Made by a program: the position numbers and the translations under genes | Shown: positions 2,737 through 61,396 of the stretch, piece by piece | How positions within the stretch are numbered: position 1 is the first letter of the stretch | How the letters are laid out: every line of letters starts with the position of its first letter | Notes under the pieces: generated by a model | Told to the model about the DNA's origin: nothing | Database searches by the model: none | The model's input: only the letters and a program-made list of their open reading frames with translations | From: Candidatus Sulfomarinibacteraceae bacterium | GTDB taxonomy: Bacteria > Acidobacteriota > Thermoanaerobaculia > Thermoanaerobaculales > Sulfomarinibacteraceae | Length of the DNA stretch: 64,000 nt | Assembly: GCA_963796455.1 (NCBI GenBank) | Contig: CAWCLO010000001.1 | Coordinates: 928,001-992,000 of the forward strand | Reading direction: 5' to 3'

Positions 2737-2757
2737 TATAGCCTATAGCTTATAGCT
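2737..2757 (-). repeat. Inverted partner array (TATAGCC/TATAGCT x3)
   Basis: Reverse complement of the 2513-2624 unit; contains the stop codon of the MBL gene. Confidence 0.75.
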
Positions 2758-3621
2758 TTTCGGGGCGTTGCTCACCGCCGCCTTGACGAAGTTGAGCCTC
2801 GAAAACTCCCTCGTCGTCAACAACTCGAAGAATCGGTCTTTCATCCTGCCCTTGGCAAAAACACGGCTCGCGATCCTGCGTGGTGACAGACCCTTGGCGG
2901 TCAGTTCCAGGGAGCGCCGGGCCGCGTCCTCGATACGGTCAGCCTTGAGTTCGAGGCTTGGGGCCGGATCGTCGACTATCGCTCCGTGACCGGTCAACAT
3001 GCGGCGAGGGGCGAGGGCGGCGACCCGACGCAAGGACTCCGCCTCCTGCCACGGGTTGCCCCAGATGAGCACCGCGGTCGCACCGGGAGAGACAAAAAGA
3101 TCGCCGGAAAAGACATATCCGGTCGCCCGCTCGAAAAACGCAACCTGAGTCCGGGAATGGCCCGGCGTCGGAATGACCTCGAGTCTTCGGTCGGAGGTCG
3201 TCATCACCTCAGGAAGCTCGGTCGCTTCGAATTCGGCCACCGGCCCCCACCAGGCGCGGCGATAGGGTGCCAGCGAACGAACGCCCTCCTCCCACAATCG
3301 ATCGGCCTCGCGGAGAAAAACCGGACAACCGTGGGCGGCGGCGATGGCAGCGCAATTTCCGGTGTGGTCTTCGTGATTGTGGGTGCAGGCGACGGCTGCA
3401 ACATCGCGGCCGGAGAGCGCAGCCAGGAACGCTTCGCCACCATGGGAGAAACCGCTATCGATCAGCAGATCGCCGAGCAGGTAAGCGTTCACCTCGAAGC
3501 CGAGTCGGCGGGTCCCTCGGCTTTGAATACGAAATCTGCAGACACCCTCACCAACCTCGTCCACAGTCACCCGGACTGCTTGCGTCCGAGCCCACGCCCG
3601 ATGAATGAAGCTCTGCCGCAC
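2743..3621 (-). CDS. MBL-fold metallo-hydrolase
   Basis: THNHEDHTG, TPGHS, SGD and GHG motifs. Confidence 0.9.
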   Translation of the reverse strand: MRQSFIHRAWARTQAVRVTVDEVGEGVCRFRIQSRGTRRLGFEVNAYLLGDLLIDSGFSHGGEAFLAALSGRDVAAVACTHNHEDHTGNCAAIAAAHGCPVFLREADRLWEEGVRSLAPYRRAWWGPVAEFEATELPEVMTTSDRRLEVIPTPGHSRTQVAFFERATGYVFSGDLFVSPGATAVLIWGNPWQEAESLRRVAALAPRRMLTGHGAIVDDPAPSLELKADRIEDAARRSLELTAKGLSPRRIASRVFAKGRMKDRFFELLTTREFSRLNFVKAAVSNAPKSYKL

Positions 3622-3689
3622 CTCGGCATCTTACTCGATACTGGATGCTGGATTCCCGAACCAGATGGCTGAGGGACTGAGTAACAATC

Positions 3690-3975
3690 GCTATCGCTAT
3701 CGGAATCGCTATCAATATCGAACGGCTGCTGTGGATACCGTTCCTGAAAGGGAGAAAGGGAGAAAAGGAGAAAGGGGGAACCATCGATCACGGATATTTC
3801 CTGCACGCGAAAATCGCCTCCCGATGTCATCCTGAGCGGAGCCCGCCCTGGGGCGTAGTCGAAGGATCTATGAGATGGACCGCAGAGACCCGTGAGCCGC
3901 AGATCCTTCGACTCGGCCGTCGGACGGCCTCGCTCAGGATGACATATTGAACGACAGTTCCGATCCCGATCCCGT
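3690..3975 (+). repeat. Composite intergenic element: ATCGCT hexamers, GGGAGAAA octamers, paired TGTCATCCTGAGCG palindrome, CCGATC hexamers
   Basis: Homologous in inverted orientation to 48690-48976. Confidence 0.85.
3824..3945. repeat. Paired palindromic element ATGTCATCCTGAGCG...AGTCGAAGGATCT / AGATCCTTCGACT...CGCTCAGGATGACAT
   Basis: Two inverted ~45-bp arms, each with an internal hairpin. Confidence 0.9.
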
Positions 3976-4035
3976 TGCAGAAGGGGAGAAAGGGAGAACC
4001 GTACCGGAGGCGTCGCTTGTGATAAGGGCCGTGTG

Positions 4036-4281
4036 TCCTCTGCTCCTCTGCTCCTCTGCCTCCTCTGCTCCTCTGCTCCTCTGCTCCTCTGCTCCTCTGG
4101 CTCCTCTAAGGCTCCTCTGGCTCCTCTGCTCACTCTGCTCCTCTGCTCCTCTGCTCCTGCTGCTCGCTCCGCTGCTCCTCAGGCTGCCTCTGCTACGTCT
4201 GCTCCTCTGCTCCTCTGCTCCTCTGCTCCTCTGCTCCTCTGCTCCTCTGCTCCTCTGCTCCTCTGCTCCTCTGCTCCTCTG
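4036..4281 (+). repeat. Tandem octamer array (TCCTCTGC)n, about 30 units, degenerate in the middle
   Basis: Read directly from the sequence. Confidence 0.95.
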
Positions 4282-4382
4282 GAGATCTGAATTTCGATAC
4301 CGGTAGCGATTGCGGCATGCACCACCAACGAAATAGATGATGAATCCGTTTTGCTTTCTCTTGCAGCGACAAGGAGATCAAT

Positions 4383-4766
4383 ATGGCCAAGGTGCTTGGA
4401 ATCGGTGGCGTGTTCTTCAAATCCGAGGACCCCGCAAAACTCGGAGAGTGGTATCAAAAATGGCTCGGACTCCCGGTAGAGCCCCCTTACGGGGCCAATT
4501 TCAAACCGGAGACCGTGCCGGCCGGTGGTCTCACCGTCTGGTCGCCGTTCAAAAAGGACACCGATTATTTCGAACCGTCGAAACAGGACTACATGATCAA
4601 CCTGATGGTGGATGATCTCGATGGTGTCTTGGCCCAGGTGACCGAAGGCGGTGGCGAAATCGTCGGTGACATCATGGACGAGGACTATGGCCGTTTTGGC
4701 TGGTTTCTCGACCCCGAGGGCAACAAGGTGGAGCTTTGGCAACCAAAAGAAGGCGGGTTTGAATGA
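4383..4766 (+). CDS. VOC (glyoxalase/bleomycin-resistance) family protein
   Basis: KVLGIGGVFF...YGRFGWFLDPEGNKVELW; AAGGAG RBS. Confidence 0.9.
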   Translation: MAKVLGIGGVFFKSEDPAKLGEWYQKWLGLPVEPPYGANFKPETVPAGGLTVWSPFKKDTDYFEPSKQDYMINLMVDDLDGVLAQVTEGGGEIVGDIMDEDYGRFGWFLDPEGNKVELWQPKEGGFE

Positions 4767-4769
4767 GGA

Positions 4770-4853
4770 ATTTCGGATTTCGGATTTCGGATTTCGGATT
4801 TCGGATTTCGGATTTCGGATTTCGGATTTCGGATTTCGGATTTCGGATTTCGG
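4770..4853 (+). repeat. Perfect heptamer array (ATTTCGG)12
   Basis: Counted directly; starts 3 nt after the VOC stop codon. Confidence 0.95.
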
Positions 4854-4873
4854 ATTTTACCGGACATTTCATG

Positions 4874-4977
4874 AGAAACCGCAGATCACGCAGATGACAT
4901 GAGGCTGGGCTGGCCAAACCGGCACTGGCCGTTTGTCATCCTGAGCGACGGAGCTTCGCGACCGAGTCGAAGGATCT
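4874..4977 (+). repeat. Dispersed module: 32-bp AGAAACCGCAGATCACGCAGATGACATGAGGC plus a 44-bp single TGTCATCCTGAGCG...GAAGGATCT arm
   Basis: Further copies at 48469-48563 and 60903-61005. Confidence 0.9.
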
Positions 4978-5009
4978 GTGCAGATAGTACATCGCGATCG
5001 ATCCGACGG

Positions 5010-5120
5010 TGATCGCTGTTCCTGATCGTTGTTCCCGGTCGCTGCTTCCTGCCGCTGAACTCTGTTCGCTGTCCCTGCTCTCTGTCCCGGTGGTTGACGC
5101 TGGACACTGTCGCTGTCGCC
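5010..5120 (+). repeat. Degenerate CGCTGT-type hexamer array (single arm)
   Basis: Same unit type as the arms at 51600-51691 and 61255-61370. Confidence 0.65.
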
Positions 5121-5150
5121 CGAGTTTTGGAGAGCAGCAACTCTTGACCC

Positions 5151-5948
5151 TTACCTCTTGACTTTCTTTTCCGCCGAATCACCATGCCGAGCAGTACCCG
5201 GAGTCGGGGGTCGCTGGTCGCCGTACCAGTATTTGTCCGCATAGTCGCTGGTCGCCCTCGGCGAGCGCAGGATCAACGGAAATACCTTGAAGAGATCGGT
5301 GAAGTAGTGCCAGTCTCCGTATTTGTCGAACTTGCGCGACGAGGCGATGCCTTTGACTTTCCGGAGACGAACGAGCCGCTGTCCTCGTTTCCGACCAAGC
5401 CTCCGAAGATCGAAAAGCAACTGGACGTCTTCACCGAAGAGACGTCTCTCGTCATAGGTTCCGACCGAAGTGAAGTCTTCCCGGAGGCAAAAGACGACCC
5501 CGGTGTCCATGCGAAGAGCCCAGACAAATGGCACGAACATGCAATAGGTGATGGCGATCCCGAGCGACCATCGTTCGAGACGGACACCGGTCGAACCCGC
5601 CACCACCCTGCCCCCCGCCAGGCAGTCCTCGATCGCGTTGAATGTCTCGGGATGAACCTGTCCATCGGCATCAACGAAACACAGAATCTTTCCGGTCGCT
5701 TCGGCCGCCCCACCATTGCGCACGCTCGCGATTCGGCGGGGTTCAATCGAGACCACCCGGCAACCCCGATCGACCGCGATCGCCGCGGTGTCGTCGAGTG
5801 ACTCGTTGTCGGCCACAACAACCTCGATCGCAGCAGGGCCCCCGCGGTAACGATCTCGGGCCACATCGACCGTGTCGAGCAATCGGGGAAGCAACTCCGC
5901 TTCGTTGTAGGCCGGAATGACCAGGGAAATCCTGGAATGACTCCTCAT
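5151..5948 (-). CDS. Glycosyltransferase family 2
   Basis: ISLVIPAYNE, VADNES, FVDAD, GED. Confidence 0.9.
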   Translation of the reverse strand: MRSHSRISLVIPAYNEAELLPRLLDTVDVARDRYRGGPAAIEVVVADNESLDDTAAIAVDRGCRVVSIEPRRIASVRNGGAAEATGKILCFVDADGQVHPETFNAIEDCLAGGRVVAGSTGVRLERWSLGIAITYCMFVPFVWALRMDTGVVFCLREDFTSVGTYDERRLFGEDVQLLFDLRRLGRKRGQRLVRLRKVKGIASSRKFDKYGDWHYFTDLFKVFPLILRSPRATSDYADKYWYGDQRPPTPGTARHGDSAEKKVKR

Positions 5949-24378: not shown

Positions 24379-24593
24379 GTTGTGCGGGCTTCTTGCCCGC
24401 ATAACGAATATCCCCCACCGCCCTTGTGGTGCGGCCGTCCCGGCCGCACATTCTTGCGGTTTATCCGGGTACCGTTGTGGTGCGGCCGTCCCGGCCGCAC
24501 ATTTTCGACCTCAGTGGAATCGTGCGGGCGAGACGCCCGCACCACAAAAACTCTCGCTACCCTTGGAAGCCCGGCGGGTCACCCGAACCACAA
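24379..24593. repeat. REP cluster left of the RAYT gene
   Basis: TTGTGGTGCGGCCGTCCCGGCCGCAC x2, an inverted GTGCGGGCGAGACGCCCGCACCACAA, and degenerate copies. Confidence 0.9.
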
Positions 24594-24603
24594 TCAGAAT
24601 GAA

Positions 24604-25227
24604 TCAATCATCACCCACACGATACCTTGCGCTTCCGAACGGCCAGTCTTGAGGCCGATCACAAAGTCCGGCCACCACCGGATTCCTCTCGGTGTAGACC
24701 ACGAATCTCTCGAAAGCCCGCTCGCCGCGAACGAGATGATCGAAGGTCTCTTCCTCCCAGATGCCTCCCTTTCTTTCCAGGGCTCTGTTGATCTCGTGTG
24801 CTGAAAACGACTTCCACGAGTGAAGAATCGTGGGCAGTGTGAATCCCGAAAACGGCGTCACCACGGCATGGACGTGGTTGGGCATAACGCACCAAGCACT
24901 GAGCGCGTAACGGTTCCCCTGAAAGTGCAACAGAGATCCTTCGACGACCGAAGCAACTCTCGGATCCCCCAGCAGACAACTGCCGGTAAAAGGCTCGGGG
25001 TCCAGTACAGACGCTATGAGGTCTGGGGTTTCATCGGCAACGATACGGCGTCTTCGAAGCACCTTTTGAGGGACCGCATCAAACAAATTGAATGTCACGA
25101 AATAGCTACAGCCGTCTTTGTAAAGGTGCGGCAGATTACCTCTCCATTGAGGCATTGTGTGGGGTTCGGACCGAGGATCGACAATCCTTTCCGGCACCAT
25201 CGGCGTCGATTTTTTGCGGTCGTTCAT
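24604..25227 (-). mobile_element. REP-associated tyrosine (HUH/Y1) transposase, RAYT
   Basis: LPH...YFVTF, VMPNHVH (HUH), WKSFSA, W...FDH, Y..RNPV.AGL...W..GS; flanked by REPs. Confidence 0.9.
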
Positions 25228-46210: not shown

Positions 46211-46437
46211 CTCCCGATCCCGTTCCCGAAAGGGAGAAAGGGAGAAAGGGAGAAAGGGAGAAAGGGAGAAAGGGAGAAAGGGAGGGGAACCGTACCGGAA
46301 ACTTCGTTCGTGATAAGGAACGGGTGTCCTCTGCTCCTCTGCTCCTCTGCTCCTCTGCTCCTCTGCTCACTCTGCTCCTCTGCTTCTGCTCCTCTGCTCC
46401 TCTGCTCCTCTGCTCCTCTGCCCTCTGCTCCTCTGCT
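46211..46437 (+). repeat. Composite module: CCGATC, (GGGAGAAA)n, linker AACCGTACCGGA-N10-GTGATAAGG, (TCCTCTGC)~14
   Basis: Same order and linker spacing as 3960-4281. Confidence 0.9.
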
Positions 46438-46450
46438 ATCCTCCCTCCCC

Positions 46451-48373
46451 ATGATTACGGTCACCGATCTCGCCAAGGCTTATGGCAGCCAAACGCTGTT
46501 CCAGGGGGTGAATTTTCAACTCAACCCGGGGAGTCGATATGGGTTGGTCGGGGCCAACGGTTCGGGCAAGAGCACGCTCCTTCGCGTCCTCGCGGGTGAA
46601 GAAGAAGCAAGCGAGGGTGCGGTTTCGATGCCAAAGAGGCTTCGCCTCGGCGTGCTCGCACAGGATCATTTCCGTTATGAGAACAAACCGATCATCGATG
46701 TCACGATGATGGGCCACCAGGAGCTCTGGCAGGCCTTGGCCGAGAAGGATCGAATCCTCGAGGCGTCGGCGGAACATTTTGATGGCGATCGCTACGCCGA
46801 GGTCGAAGACCTGATCGTGAGTCTCGACGGGTACAGCTTCGAGGCCCGATCGAGCGAAATCCTCGAGGGGCTCGGCATCCCGACCGAAATCCACCGCGAA
46901 CCCCTGTCGACTCTTTCCGGCGGTTTCAAACTTCGAGTCCTTCTGGCCCAGGTCCTCGCCGCGGATCCGGGTGTCCTGCTCCTGGACGAACCGACCAACC
47001 ACCTCGACATCATTTCAATTCGTTGGCTCGAGAAATTTCTCGCGACCTACCGCGGCTGCGCAATCGTGATCTCCCACGACCACCGCTTCCTCGACAATGT
47101 CTGTACCAATATCCTCGATGTCGACTATGAGACCGTCACCCTCTACACCGGTAACTACAGCGATTTCACCAAGGCCAAGATCGCCGAAAGGGATCGGAAA
47201 GAAGGCGAGATCGCCCGTCAGGAAAAAAAGATCGCCCAGCAGCAAGCCTTCGTCGATCGTTTCAGGGCCAAGGCAACCAAGGCGCGGCAAGCGCAGAGCA
47301 AGCTCAAACAGATGGACCGTATCGAAGTCCTGACGCTCGCCCGATCGTCACGGAGATACCCGATCTTTCGCTTCAAGCAAACACGCCCGAGCGGCAAAGA
47401 GGCGCTCAATGTGGAGGGTCTCGATAAATCATTTGAAGACAACCAGGTGCTTCGCGGCATCAACCTCAACGTCCGCCGAGGAGACCGCCTCGCGATCATC
47501 GGTCCAAACGGAATCGGAAAATCGACTTTTCTCAAGATCGCCGTTGGTGAACTCGAGGCGGATCGCGGTGAACTCAAATGGGGCCACGAGGTGAGGCCCG
47601 GCTACTTCGCCCAGGATCACCGGCAATCGCTCAGCGGTCGAGACGTCACCGTAGAGAGCTGGCTGGCGGCGTTCTGCATCGGTGAAGGAACAGGGCCGGT
47701 CCGGAGCCGTCTCGGCCAGGTGCTTTTTTCGGGTGACGATGTGGAGAAACGGCTGTCGAGTCTGTCCGGTGGCGAGGCGGCACGATTGATTTTTGCTCGT
47801 TTGGTGGCCGAACAACCCAACGTGCTGGTCCTCGACGAACCTACGAACCATCTCGACCTCGAAGCGATTGAAGCCCTGGTTGCCGGGCTCGAAGCCTACG
47901 ACGGGACCTTGATTTTCGTTTCTCACGATCGTTGGTTCGTCTCCCGTCTCGCGACCCGGGTCCTCGAGATCACCCACGAAGGTCTCAACGACTACCGGGG
48001 GACCTACGATGAGTATCTGGCCAGTTGTGGCGACGATCACCTCGATGCCGATGCCGCCGTCTTGCGCGTGCGACGTGACAAACGCCACCGCAAGCGGGGC
48101 GCCTCGAAGGCACCCAAACCCAAAAACAGCGGCGACGTTGCAGCCAAGCGGAAGCGGATCATGCTCCGTCGCGATGTGGTCACCGCGGCCATCGAAAACA
48201 CCGAGGCGCGAATCGAGGAGATCGATGCCGCGTTCTGCAAACCCGGCTTTTTCGAAAAAAACTCGAAACAAAAGACCCGGTCCATGCAACAGGAACGGGA
48301 CAAAAAAGCATTGGAGCTCGAAAAGCTGATGGCGGAATGGGAAGAGCTCGAGGCCAAGTTGGAAGAGAATTAG
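46451..48373 (+). CDS. ABC-F family ATPase (YbiT-like)
   Basis: Two ABC domains (GANGSGKST, LSGG, LDEPTNHLD; GPNGIGKST); no TM segments. Confidence 0.93.
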   Translation: MITVTDLAKAYGSQTLFQGVNFQLNPGSRYGLVGANGSGKSTLLRVLAGEEEASEGAVSMPKRLRLGVLAQDHFRYENKPIIDVTMMGHQELWQALAEKDRILEASAEHFDGDRYAEVEDLIVSLDGYSFEARSSEILEGLGIPTEIHREPLSTLSGGFKLRVLLAQVLAADPGVLLLDEPTNHLDIISIRWLEKFLATYRGCAIVISHDHRFLDNVCTNILDVDYETVTLYTGNYSDFTKAKIAERDRKEGEIARQEKKIAQQQAFVDRFRAKATKARQAQSKLKQMDRIEVLTLARSSRRYPIFRFKQTRPSGKEALNVEGLDKSFEDNQVLRGINLNVRRGDRLAIIGPNGIGKSTFLKIAVGELEADRGELKWGHEVRPGYFAQDHRQSLSGRDVTVESWLAAFCIGEGTGPVRSRLGQVLFSGDDVEKRLSSLSGGEAARLIFARLVAEQPNVLVLDEPTNHLDLEAIEALVAGLEAYDGTLIFVSHDRWFVSRLATRVLEITHEGLNDYRGTYDEYLASCGDDHLDADAAVLRVRRDKRHRKRGASKAPKPKNSGDVAAKRKRIMLRRDVVTAAIENTEARIEEIDAAFCKPGFFEKNSKQKTRSMQQERDKKALELEKLMAEWEELEAKLEEN

Positions 48374-48450
48374 GGATTAGGATATTTCCAATTTCGAATT
48401 TCGGATTTCGAATTTCGGATTTCGGATTTCGGATTTCGGATTTCGGATTT
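48374..48450 (+). repeat. Heptamer array ATTTCG(G/A)
   Basis: Starts at the ABC-F stop codon. Confidence 0.9.
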
Positions 48451-48468
48451 TCGCCAACCCATCACATA

Positions 48469-48563
48469 AGAAACCGCAGATCACGCAGATGACATGAGGC
48501 CGTCCCGGCACTGGCCGATTGTCATCCTGAGCGACGGAGCTTCGCGACCGAGTCGAAGGATCT
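48469..48563 (+). repeat. Second copy of the CGCAGAT/TGTCATCCTGAGCG module
   Basis: 32-bp and 44-bp blocks identical to 4874-4905 and 4934-4977. Confidence 0.9.
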
Positions 48564-54993: not shown

Positions 54994-55073
54994 GGGCTAT
55001 GGGGCTATGCGCTATGGGGCTATGGGGCTATGCGCTACTTAGGGGCTATGGGGCTATGGGGCTATGGGGCTAT
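54994..55073 (+). repeat. Tandem array (GGGGCTAT)n, about 10 units
   Basis: Read directly from the sequence. Confidence 0.92.
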
Positions 55074-55100
55074 TGAGCAATCGGTGTTCGTTGGCAGGAG

Positions 55101-55457
55101 TCAATAGGACCTGCGCTTCTGAATGAATGAGGCAAGAGCGGCCGCCGTTCTGCCTTGCGATTCGCGCAGCTTTTCTGATTTCCCATCGGCCAAATATCCC
55201 AGCCTGTGAGAAAGGTCGATCAGGTACCCCAATTCCCGGACCGATCCAAATGCGATATCGAGAAAACGGTCGAATTCGGTTTCAGTCCTTCGGCCACAAC
55301 CTTCTACAATATTTGCGGCGACAGAGACGGAGCACCGTCTCATCTGGCTGACCAATCCATAGAGTTCGTCCTGTGGATAACTTTTTGTCGCTTGGTAAAC
55401 GAGAATCACCAGATCATCTGCCAACCGATAAACATCAAGCTTTCGATGGTCTCTCAA
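55101..55457 (-). CDS. Four helix bundle protein (23S rRNA-IVP / Avd-like family)
   Basis: RDHRKLDVY, YPQDELYGLVSQMRR.SVSVAANIVEG, FLDIAFGS..E, LGY. Confidence 0.92.
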   Translation of the reverse strand: MRDHRKLDVYRLADDLVILVYQATKSYPQDELYGLVSQMRRCSVSVAANIVEGCGRRTETEFDRFLDIAFGSVRELGYLIDLSHRLGYLADGKSEKLRESQGRTAAALASFIQKRRSY

Positions 55458-55494
55458 AGCGTTCTCACTTTAGATCGGAGGCTCCAAACCCGTG

Positions 55495-55531
55495 ATCGCC
55501 ATAGCCTTATAGCCCCACAGCCTCATAGCCT
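55495..55531 (-). repeat. Inverted partner array (ATAGCC(C/T)N units)
   Basis: Reverse complement of the 54994-55073 unit; abuts the upstream gene's stop codon. Confidence 0.85.
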
Positions 55532-57546
55532 CATTGCCCATTCACCGCCTGCGCTACCAACTCGATGACATCGTAGGTCGTCGCGTCCTCATGCCCCATT
55601 TCGTTCTGGGCATCGGAGAGCATCGAGTAGCAGTAGGGGCATGCGACTGCCGTGTCCTTCGTTCCGGTGGCCTCGAGCTGGGCGAACCGGGTCTGGTTGA
55701 TGCGCTCTCCGATGCTTTCCTCGAGCCACATCCGACCGCCGCCGGCGCCGCAGCACATCGAGGTTTCACGACTGAGTTCGGCCTCCCGTACATTGACGCC
55801 CGGAATCGCGTTGAGGAGGAATCGCGGCGCGTCGTATTCGCCGTTGGTGCGGCCGAGATAACAGGGATCGTGATAAGCCACGTCGACATCGACCGTCGCG
55901 GTGAGCTTCACCTTGCCCGACCGTACGAGATCGGCGACGAGTTGGGTGCCGTGGACGACTTCGTACTCTCCGCCGAACTCGGGATACTCGTGCGCCAAGG
56001 TATTGAAGGCGTGCGGGCAATTGGTGACGATTTTCTTGACGCCATAGCCGTTCATGGTCTCGATGTTTTGCTGCGCCAGCATCTGGAAGAGGTATTCGTT
56101 GCCGAGCCGGCGCGCCGCGTCGCCGGTCGAGACCTCCTCGGGACCGAGGATGGCGATCTTGACACCGGCGGTCTGGAGAATCTTGACCATCGCCTGCGAG
56201 ACCTTTTTGCCGTGATCGTCGTAGCTTCCGGGCGACCCGACAAAAAACAGATATTCGAAATCGCCCGCGGCCTCCGCAGCAAGCGGGACACCGAGATCTG
56301 AGGCCCAGTTGCCGCGTTCTTCCGCCGGCAGCTGCCACGGGTTGCCGTTGACCTCGTAGCCGCGGAAGGCAGGTTGGGCTTCGTCGGGGAACTCCGCTTT
56401 CTCGAGCACCAGGTTCCGCCGCAACTCCACCAGCTTGTCGACGTAGCTGATATCGAGGGGACACGCCCGTTCGCACCAGCGGCAGGTGGTGCAAGCCCAG
56501 ATGACCTCGGGATCAACGACCACCGGCACCAGTTGATGTTCGGATCGGTGATCCGCTTCTCCGGGCGAACCGAGAATGTCCTGCTGCTCGGCATAGAGTT
56601 GATCTCGCACGCTCTTCAGAAAAAGCACCGGCTGCAGCGGTTTGTGGGTGAGGGTGGTCGGACAATACTCCCGGCAGCGTCCGCACTCGGTACAGGTGTA
56701 CATATCGAGCATCTGCTTCCAGGTGAAGTCGGTCACCGTCGAGATACCGAACGTGGTGTTGTCGTCGATGTTCTCGAGATCCATGCTCGGCAATTTGCCG
56801 GGAGCATCGAGATTGGCGAAAAAGACGTTGAATATCGAGGTGTAGACGTGGAAGTGCTTGGAGTACGGCAGTTCGTTGGCAAAGGCGAACAGGGTGATGA
56901 GGTGGACCCACCAGCTGAAGCCGTAGATGAATTGGAGCTTCGCCGCGCTGAGACCTGAAAAGGCGCCCGCTACGAGACTCGAGATCGGAAGATAGGAGCC
57001 CTCGAGCTCACCGGCCGCAATGCGCGCGCCCTCCGATGTCAGGTCGGTGATCATGAGGATGGCGATAAAACCAATCACCAACCAGGCGCCCCAGCTCTGA
57101 ATCACGCGCTCCTTCTTCTGGATGCCCCGTCGCCAGATGGCGAAAGCGAGACCGACCAATACCAGCAACTCGAATATGTCCTTGGAGAACAAATAGGCGT
57201 GGCCCACCGGCGAATCGAGGAGCGGCAGTTCCCAACCCGCAAAAAGGCCCTCGAGGACCATGGTCACCGTGCGCACGCTGACCACCAGGAAACCGTAGAA
57301 GATCAGCAGGTGATAGAAACCGGCCAGCTTGTCGTCAAACATCTTCCTCTGACCGAAGGCGTAGACCATCATGTGTTTGAATCGCTCACCTATACGGTCG
57401 AAACGATTGTCCGCCCGGCCGCTCCTGAGAAGCTGAATCCGCCGGCTCAGCGAAAAGATGACTGCGCCGACACCGAAAATCGTGAGAATCCAGAACCAAA
57501 CAACCCCGGAAATCCCCAGAAACGACCCAGCGGTGGCGTGATGCAT
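55531..57546 (-). CDS. Membrane-bound Fe-S oxidoreductase (FadF/HdrF-like)
   Basis: TM N-terminus; CTECGRC...CP, CTTCRWC...CP; CCG domain (HDPCYLGR, CCGAGGG). Confidence 0.9.
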   Translation of the reverse strand: MHHATAGSFLGISGVVWFWILTIFGVGAVIFSLSRRIQLLRSGRADNRFDRIGERFKHMMVYAFGQRKMFDDKLAGFYHLLIFYGFLVVSVRTVTMVLEGLFAGWELPLLDSPVGHAYLFSKDIFELLVLVGLAFAIWRRGIQKKERVIQSWGAWLVIGFIAILMITDLTSEGARIAAGELEGSYLPISSLVAGAFSGLSAAKLQFIYGFSWWVHLITLFAFANELPYSKHFHVYTSIFNVFFANLDAPGKLPSMDLENIDDNTTFGISTVTDFTWKQMLDMYTCTECGRCREYCPTTLTHKPLQPVLFLKSVRDQLYAEQQDILGSPGEADHRSEHQLVPVVVDPEVIWACTTCRWCERACPLDISYVDKLVELRRNLVLEKAEFPDEAQPAFRGYEVNGNPWQLPAEERGNWASDLGVPLAAEAAGDFEYLFFVGSPGSYDDHGKKVSQAMVKILQTAGVKIAILGPEEVSTGDAARRLGNEYLFQMLAQQNIETMNGYGVKKIVTNCPHAFNTLAHEYPEFGGEYEVVHGTQLVADLVRSGKVKLTATVDVDVAYHDPCYLGRTNGEYDAPRFLLNAIPGVNVREAELSRETSMCCGAGGGRMWLEESIGERINQTRFAQLEATGTKDTAVACPYCYSMLSDAQNEMGHEDATTYDVIELVAQAVNGQ

Positions 57547-60902: not shown

Positions 60903-61005
60903 AGAAACCGCAGATCACGCAGATGACATGAGGCGGTGCCGACCGTGGCTACACCGCCTCATGTCATCCTGAGCGAGGGAGTTTCGCGACCGAGTCGAAG
61001 GATCT
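60903..61005 (+). repeat. Third copy of the CGCAGAT/TGTCATCCTGAGCG module, with a perfect 17-bp stem
   Basis: 60922-60938 pairs with 60952-60968. Confidence 0.9.
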
Positions 61006-61099: not shown

Positions 61100-61396
61100 C
61101 CGAATTGCAGCGGCAGCGACAGTGTTCAGCGTCAGCGACAGGCAACAGCGAACAGGGACAGCGACAGAGAACAGCGATCAGTGTTCAGCGGCAGCGGCAG
61201 CGATCAGGTCCGTGCCATGACCTGGCGGCTGTTGAACCCAAAAATTAACGTACCGTTCCCTGACGCTGACGCTGCTCGCCGACGCTGGTTCCTGTCGCTG
61301 TCGCCGACTCCTGTTCGCTGACGCTGTACACTGATCGCTGTTCCCTGTCTCTGACGCTGATCGCTGTCTAAGACCCTGTCTTGGACAAGAGTGATC
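61100..61396. repeat. Foldback hexamer element (homolog of 51359-51691)
   Basis: GACAGC-type left arm and CGCTGT-type right arm. Confidence 0.8.

Follow-up and report, generated by a model that had tools for sequence, protein, structure and literature searches.

Short tandem repeats with a defined polarity relative to genes have been described in Xanthomonas and Nostoc, where G-rich heptamers form sense-strand arrays within 50 bp after stop codons and antisense arrays within 50 bp before open reading frames (Rehm et al. 2015, PMC4692102). Such arrays often occur as convergent inverted pairs, and nearby loci are reported to be genomically stable (PMC4692102). Ordered intergenic mosaics that are polymorphic between relatives are represented by the BIMEs of E. 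coli and by REPINs, and for BIMEs a spread by recombination followed by local amplification has been proposed (PMC3333891); mosaic intergenic regions of a comparable kind in Neisseria are mentioned in PMC3733652. The latter source also describes CGTC/TGTC-tagged REPs as head-to-head dimers without a dedicated transposase, and genes for Ssn GIY-YIG nucleases are flanked by Ssn-related motifs (PMC11893778). Polarity, convergent pairs and ordered REP mosaics are already known from these accounts (PMC4692102, PMC3333891). In the accessible text of the literature searched, neither a tandem-array doublet oriented with replication nor the pair of repeat modules that is the subject of the present analysis is described.

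The window analysed here is a whole 64,000-nt stretch of DNA (C1:928001-992000, in contig C1 of the genome). The genome comprises 5.02 Mb in 10 contigs at a completeness of 90.5%, and our own gene calls were used (4437 genes, 86% coding). Two unrelated genes at a distance of 42 kb in the window, one belonging to the VOC/glyoxalase family and the other encoding an ABC-F-type ATPase, are each preceded by a left module (L) and followed by a right module (R) (Table 1). An earlier note on this DNA had offered three readings of the arrangement, i.e., a frame that captures or exchanges cargo genes, repeat-mediated conversion between spacers, or a coincidence of common modules.

Table 1. Features of the VOC and ABC-F loci and the third right module (positions counted from the first letter of the window)
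Feature	Position	Strand	Description
Metallo-beta-lactamase-fold hydrolase gene	2743..3621	-	PF00753; conserved left neighbour of VOC
Left spacer mosaic	3634..4281	+	GATGCTG-type units, (ATCGCT)n, (GAAAGGGA)n, REP doublet, then (CCCGAT)n, (GAAAGGGA)n, linker, (TCCTCTGC)n
Head-to-head doublet of TGTC-tagged REP/SRM-like hairpin arms	3825..3944	.	arms 3825-3869, 3901-3944
Left-module linker (L)	3997..4027	+	loop of GAAAGGGA/TCCTCTGC doublet
(TCCTCTGC)n reverse array	4036..4281	+	many indel-type aberrant units
VOC/glyoxalase-family gene	4383..4766	+	127 aa; PF18029, PF00903 above cut-off
(ATTTCGG)n forward array at VOC stop	4770..4857	+
Right module (R)	4874..4985	+	GCAGAT-type head 4874-4897, 80-nt insert 4898-4977, tail from 4978
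Family 2 glycosyltransferase gene	5151..5948	-	right neighbour of VOC
Second left module	46214..46437	+	(CCCGAT) units, (GAAAGGGA)n 46228-46284, linker 46288-46318, (TCCTCTGC)n 46327-46437
TGCTATCCT	46434..46442	+	17 nt before ABC-F start; overlaps last array unit; predicted extended -10 box
ABC-F-type ATPase gene	46451..48373	+	640 aa; PF00005 x2, PF12848, PF16326
(ATTTCGG/ATTTCGA)n forward array after ABC-F stop	48384..48450	+
Second right module (R)	48469..48563	+	71-nt insert
Third right module (R)	60903..61005	+	after rubrerythrin-like gene

The labels VOC and ABC-F given to the two genes in the earlier note are upheld by the Pfam families. The best NCBIfam match of the ABC-F gene is PRK15064 at 615 bits, below the cut-off of 762, and each resistance-type ABC-F model among the NCBIfam matches listed scored below its own cut-off. 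Upstream of both genes, the repeat units, linker and array follow one another as the note had described, with the arrays located where it had placed them. The claimed equal spacing of the linkers (3997-4027 and 46288-46318) is exact in the sequence, with an identical 11+10+9 division and mismatches at 5/31 positions. The order of parts in the left spacer mosaic at 3634..4281 is found again at other loci. Downstream, the two blocks that had been called identical agree letter for letter, one of 32 bp (4874-4905 = 48469-48500) and the other a 44-bp arm (4934-4977 = 48520-48563), and the DNA between them is unlike, with 28 nt at VOC vs 19 nt at ABC-F. The 80-nt insert at 4898-4977 ends in a solitary REP arm (4934-4977). 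An (ATTTCGG)n array had also been placed at both stop codons; this is correct for VOC, where it begins 1-3 nt past the stop, but not for ABC-F, where it begins 10-16 nt past the stop. The third right module of the window (60903-61005) has no left module within 3 kb.

Where the second left module ends, a box of the TGCTATCCT type is kept at an equal distance from the ABC-F start in 18/19 congeners, and we infer that it has a promoter role. Between this box and the start (window 46434-46453) there is no purine-rich ribosome-binding site, which together with the box suggests that the ABC-F transcript may be leaderless or near-leaderless. As a general rule, the abutment of -10 boxes on arrays was rejected, with TAnnnT in 44/202 windows vs 39.5 in shuffles, and it applies to ABC-F only.

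Gene order in related genomes bears directly on whether the two genes are cargo. VOC is present in 13/24 congeners, and the hydrolase adjoins it in 13/13 of these loci. On the right side, within 1.5 kb, the glycosyltransferase is found in 8/13, the next genes of this genome's order in 2/13, and no such gene in 3/13. In another family there are three VOC matches (38-46% identity) that are not syntenic. ABC-F is present in 21/24 congeners, of which 19 loci were taken for synteny, with loci ending at contig edges left out per side. The RsmB/NusB gene follows ABC-F in 17/17 loci with enough DNA, and an upstream neighbour from this genome's order precedes it in 16/16. Both modules were searched for in 40 relatives, including 24 other genomes of the genus that make up the entire genus sample, and neither the L pattern (0) nor the R pattern (0) was found in them; a metagenome collection gave 0 exact matches to L. 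Because the neighbours are kept in congeners without L and R, the genes are older at their sites than the modules. The earlier note had named synteny in sister genomes as an observation that could overturn its reading, and VOC and ABC-F proved to be fixed where both modules are missing. As judged from sequence comparison, VOC is evidently a resident gene, not cargo, and ABC-F is evidently resident as well.

Some change in gene content is seen to the right of VOC. A TauE/SafE-family gene of 119 aa follows VOC in 11/13 congeners (congener locus L002:1057-1416) and in most of them separates VOC from the glycosyltransferase; its orthologue was not found in this genome, either at the window site 4767-5150 or elsewhere, where only 27-34% matches occur. 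Gene content has therefore changed beside R, which occupies the expected TauE position; the gene is also missing there in two congeners.

The arrays at the gene ends have a history of their own. At ABC-F, congeners have an array before the gene in 17/19 and after it in 12/19, with units that vary by genome. For VOC, arrays were scored at 12 congener loci, one split gene being dropped, and some array of 7-nt units begins -6 to +12 nt from the stop in 12/12, whereas an array within 90 nt before the gene is present in just 1/12. The array before VOC in the present genome is for this reason a new insertion and not an overwritten array. Across the genus, short arrays hold three of the four VOC/ABC-F gene ends, with other units. 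Since the array positions are old and the units change among congeners, (ATTTCGG)n at the stop does not speak for a common frame. The stop codon of VOC and of ABC-F is often part of the array itself, which keeps its position although its unit changes between congeners (loci L002-L013, L019-L037).

The polarity of the arrays is a genome-wide property. Of 3040 spacers of at least 20 nt, 494 contain tandem arrays, which fall into at least nine families with units of 6-8 nt. The forward sense of each family was fixed by eye, and the real test is the within-family asymmetry between left and right. At the left edge of spacers, arrays are forward in 131 cases and reverse in 10, and at the right edge forward in 35 and reverse in 184; the ATTTCGG family alone has forward:reverse ratios of 56:1 at the left edge and 14:61 at the right. 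Spacers with arrays at both edges are arranged forward..reverse in 39 cases, forward-forward in 6, reverse-reverse in 4 and reverse..forward in 0. Adjacent array pairs are forward-reverse in 74 cases and reverse-forward in 5, and arrays within 10 nt of a stop are forward in 127 cases vs reverse in 4. Since spacers tend to start with a forward array and end with a reversed one, a gene between two spacers tends to look framed. The resulting reverse-gene-forward layout is seen in 38/96 genes with arrays on both sides, four of them with the unit types of VOC/ABC-F. Genes truly inside forward..reverse pairs are mostly four-helix-bundle genes or fragments.

L is a self-contained doublet of array, linker and array in which the two arms consist of different units. 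Its linker occurs in 34 copies at up to 2 mismatches in the genome (41 matches at up to 4 mismatches, a few of them probably due to chance), nearly always between (GAAAGGGA)n and (TCCTCTGC)n, with another reverse array at the end of some copies. L is found on the C-rich strand in 33/34 copies, one of those in a zone of near-zero skew, and the doublet outnumbers its mirror image by 23 vs 0. As the cumulative skew of C10 has its minimum at dnaA, the G-rich strand was taken as leading. A replication bias is absent in R (4:3), in the host repeat of R (56:50) and in all REP arms (96:83). We infer that the copying or retention of L is coupled to fork direction during replication. For IS200/IS605 elements, a preference of single-strand transposition for the lagging-strand template is established (PMC5027513), and by analogy L might use a similar single-strand route; an alternative for the bias is that array stability depends on the strand. 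Transcription was rejected as the cause of L orientation, with flanking gene orientations of 10/10/9/5, and so was a stable RNA hairpin, as L folds no better than shuffles (z +0.40). A second repeat family is also orientation-biased, at 21:1.

R has a different build and distribution. It is a chimera of two repeat families, a GCAGAT-type host repeat with 106 copies and an insert of 71-80 nt whose last part is a single TGTC-tagged hairpin arm; beyond the insert the host repeat continues. TGTC-tagged arms of the type of the 44-bp arm number 181 in the genome, and R folds modestly (z -1.72). The 7 copies of R are all located on C1 at 645-1195 kb, and the probability that seven random host-repeat sites fall within 550 kb of one contig is P=1.4e-4, so that a local spread of R is indicated. 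The left-right junctions proposed as a sign of an emptied frame were absent from the assembly, where none of the 7 R copies (0/7) is joined to L without a gene.

In the set of 3881 genes, L is located upstream of 19 and R downstream of 6, and 2 genes are flanked by both modules in this way, which gives P=3.4e-4. Among the 167 genes with repeats on both sides, L/R co-flanking has P=0.003, or P=0.010 with matching strand; these single-pair values (3e-4 to 0.01) concern a module pair picked after the fact. L is upstream without R in 17/19 genes, and R is downstream without L in 4/6. Genome-wide co-flanking was scored as unrelated gene pairs with common non-tandem 18-mers on both sides, and in the permutation the downstream spacers were shuffled among genes with repeats on both sides. 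With an attC array on C4 left in, 155 pairs were obtained vs 20 in the permutation, which serves as a positive control; as a sign of genome-wide co-flanking this first excess was rejected, since it came from the attC array and was gone once the array was removed. After exclusion of C4:740-900 kb and one related gene at C1:785729 (30 genes), 137 genes were retained, and observed vs permuted pairs at four thresholds were 18/17.4, 9/9.1, 4/3.2 and 2/1.5. The claim that the module pair co-flanks genes more often than expected thus holds nominally for this pair alone (P=3.4e-4) but not for any module pair, since a pair as good as VOC/ABC-F appeared in 25% of shuffles of the 137 genes (P=0.25).

Based on these results, we consider it very probable that VOC and ABC-F are resident genes and that their common flanks come from two separate mosaic spacer repeats whose ends face each other, maybe with some local conversion. 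L and R would have been copied either into spacer repeats that were already there or on top of them, and this copying would take the form of non-reciprocal recombination between repeats, with R moving by short hops. The modules would likely have been copied to the two loci independently and within this lineage, and somewhat more tentatively, the VOC and ABC-F loci perhaps exchanged short tracts once or twice. Together with spacer polarity, a coincidence of common modules, as considered in the earlier note, explains the greater part of the pattern.

A reading that is compatible with resident genes and mosaic spacers, and adds to it, is that the two loci exchanged both flanks through gene conversion, with direct repeats at a distance of 42 kb as partners. 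A possible route would be transient duplication and reversion, and the match may partly reflect common descent of spacer DNA. The 44-bp arms of the two loci are identical and the five other copies deviate by 1-3 letters; the 12-mer around a 9-nt variant in the array at 4036..4281, a variant common only to the ABC-F locus, has exactly two occurrences in the genome, one at each locus; and VOC/ABC-F is the sole pair of 8385 non-paralogous pairs with private k-mers common to both sides. For the last test, 7 near-identical paralogues (transposase-like) were additionally left out, with which there are 4 pairs, and depending on thresholds P is 0.012-0.25 in a global shuffle and 0.025-0.27 in a local shuffle. 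Private sharing between spacers is also enriched at short range, 6-8-fold at less than 10 kb and 1.6-1.9-fold at 10-50 kb, but direct orientation is not preferred at 10-50 kb (17 direct vs 15 inverted). The linkers, which mismatch at five positions as noted above, have closer copies elsewhere and are not mutually closest (among 33 copies they place 9th and 19th for each other), and the top 21 non-self BLASTN hits of either upstream spacer do not include the other one. On the right side, the VOC downstream spacer is matched equally well by a copy at C1:1194k and by the ABC-F copy (238 vs 236 bits), and the private signal on the left side amounts to one inserted base in an array rich in indel-type units. 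Conversion between spacers, as first put forward, thus gains some weight from the arms that are identical only mutually, the 9-nt variant and the local spread of R, and as an account of both flanks we regard it as rather unlikely.

Three near-identical transposase-like ORFs with shared flanks are found at C6:37603-38634, C7:280408-281373 and C7:285302-286618, and are presumably of IS91 type.

It is quite unlikely that the likeness is partly an artefact of assembly or polishing in long tandem arrays, which would chiefly concern the shared left-array variant. Indel units that occur only once are indeed numerous in the VOC array, which sets it apart from most of the 34 arrays after L, but the linkers, blocks and synteny are independent of the arrays, and a short-read contig from an independent run is identical to 4876-4978 (0 differences), including the locus-specific middle, from which it follows that the VOC-side right module is real DNA. 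Least probable by far is an integron-like or transposon-like frame, bounded by L at one end and R at the other, that captures or swaps single genes, as the earlier note suggested: exact same-orientation co-flanking occurs twice with a single-pair P of 3e-4, a TauE gene was lost beside R, and according to one proposal TnpA-REP takes flanking genes along with BIMEs (PMC3333891), but the neighbours of both genes are kept in all congener loci with enough DNA, there is no empty frame among the 7 R copies and at C1:1008k L and R face each other inside one spacer, the genome-wide co-flanking equals the permutation null after removal of the attC array, ORF and family scans gave no attC-type site, integrase or transposase gene beside either locus, and the contigs of four shallow runs showed no joints at the right module.

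With VOC and ABC-F as resident genes beside separate spacer mosaics, polar spacer arrays mean that a resident gene between repeat-bearing spacers can mimic captured cargo, and a synteny check together with a permutation test that has an internal positive control decides between cargo and resident. The facts left over concern the spread of short tandem intergenic repeats: across the genus the array positions stay fixed while the units change, and L has one orientation relative to replication in nearly all copies (33/34), both of which point to fork-coupled copying. A wider picture, to which we give little credence in its entirety, would have L as a young species-specific mini-element that is copied one way relative to the fork and overwrites older arrays where gene ends are conserved; spacer repeats would then be targets of fork-coupled conversion that link distant loci on both flanks and delete small genes (TauE maybe), and the VOC and ABC-F loci would show a swap-ready frame in formation around resident genes, without a dedicated recombinase.

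As for the Xanthomonas/Nostoc heptamers, the arrays are forward after stops and reversed before starts and form convergent inverted pairs. Unlike the heptamers, the main units here contain no four-G runs by inspection and would not be G-quadruplex-forming (G4) units, and the at least nine unit families, most of them lacking four-G runs, the different units in the two arms of L, and the turnover of units among congeners at a fixed site are further differences. The resemblance to BIMEs and Neisseria mosaics lies in intergenic REP hairpins that combine with other repeats in a recurring order and vary at fixed loci, here between species. In contrast to BIMEs and REPINs, the hairpins are TGTC-tagged instead of GTAG-tagged, and tandem arrays dominate the mosaics. 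The 44-bp arm starts with TGTC and its family makes head-to-head dimers, as do CGTC/TGTC REPs, but the arm is longer than those of the described CGTC families, for which 8-9-bp stems are given in PMC3733652. At congener GIY-YIG loci (11 short-frame and one fragment), arms of the same build are found on both sides of the gene in 3/12 (L050, L051, L052). A small Ssn-like gene was not found in this genome, which is 90.5% complete and has one GIY-YIG match in a 668-aa frame. PF01797 (Y1 transposase) has six matches in the genome. Within the window, the region 24418-25155 contains a Y1 (IS200-like) transposase gene (24604-25155) and an adjacent 26-bp repeat, a REP family distinct from the TGTC arms.

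The same arrays are also associated with PF05635 (IVS-protein/Avd-like) four-helix-bundle genes, for which there are 70 matches, 67 of them over the cut-off (e.g., C1:873525-873815). Most of these matches form a single family of near-identical members, which has inverted ends and a conserved hairpin leader (71 copies), and no transposase was seen inside the PF05635 cassettes of this genome. An origin of the L linker from the end of a four-helix-bundle gene was also considered. The accessible portions of PMC5524665, PMC3531188 and PMC4679880 make no link of four-helix-bundle genes to arrays. Similar to the VOC and ABC-F flanks, the cassettes have the arrays in forward..reverse order, and several of their genes are directly bracketed by matching inverted arrays. 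A cassette encloses its gene within the pair, whereas VOC and ABC-F each lie outside such pairs, where one element has ended and the next has yet to begin. Two sites in the window relate to this group: a PF05635 gene at 55101-55424 is bracketed by inverted GGCTATG/CATAGCC arrays (54994-55538), and 61108-61368 looks by eye like an internally deleted PF05635 cassette, with degenerate inverted arrays and the last ~40 nt of the gene.

Integron cassettes are mobile genes in a tandem array, separated by one type of site. The genome has an integron-type array at C4:846000-879400, with some 35 short genes and attC-like sites between them, and beside it is an integrase-like match (C4:878636-878941) that is under the cut-off and has one stop. 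In both the integron and the present loci, unrelated single genes lie between repeated sites, but at VOC and ABC-F, which are conserved, resident and 42 kb distant from each other, the two flanking modules differ from one another. By inspection, neither L nor R resembles the attC-like sites of C4, and the window contains no integrase-like match. The L/R mosaics fail each gene-capture test that was run, and in their positions they work like the heptamer and BIME mosaics.
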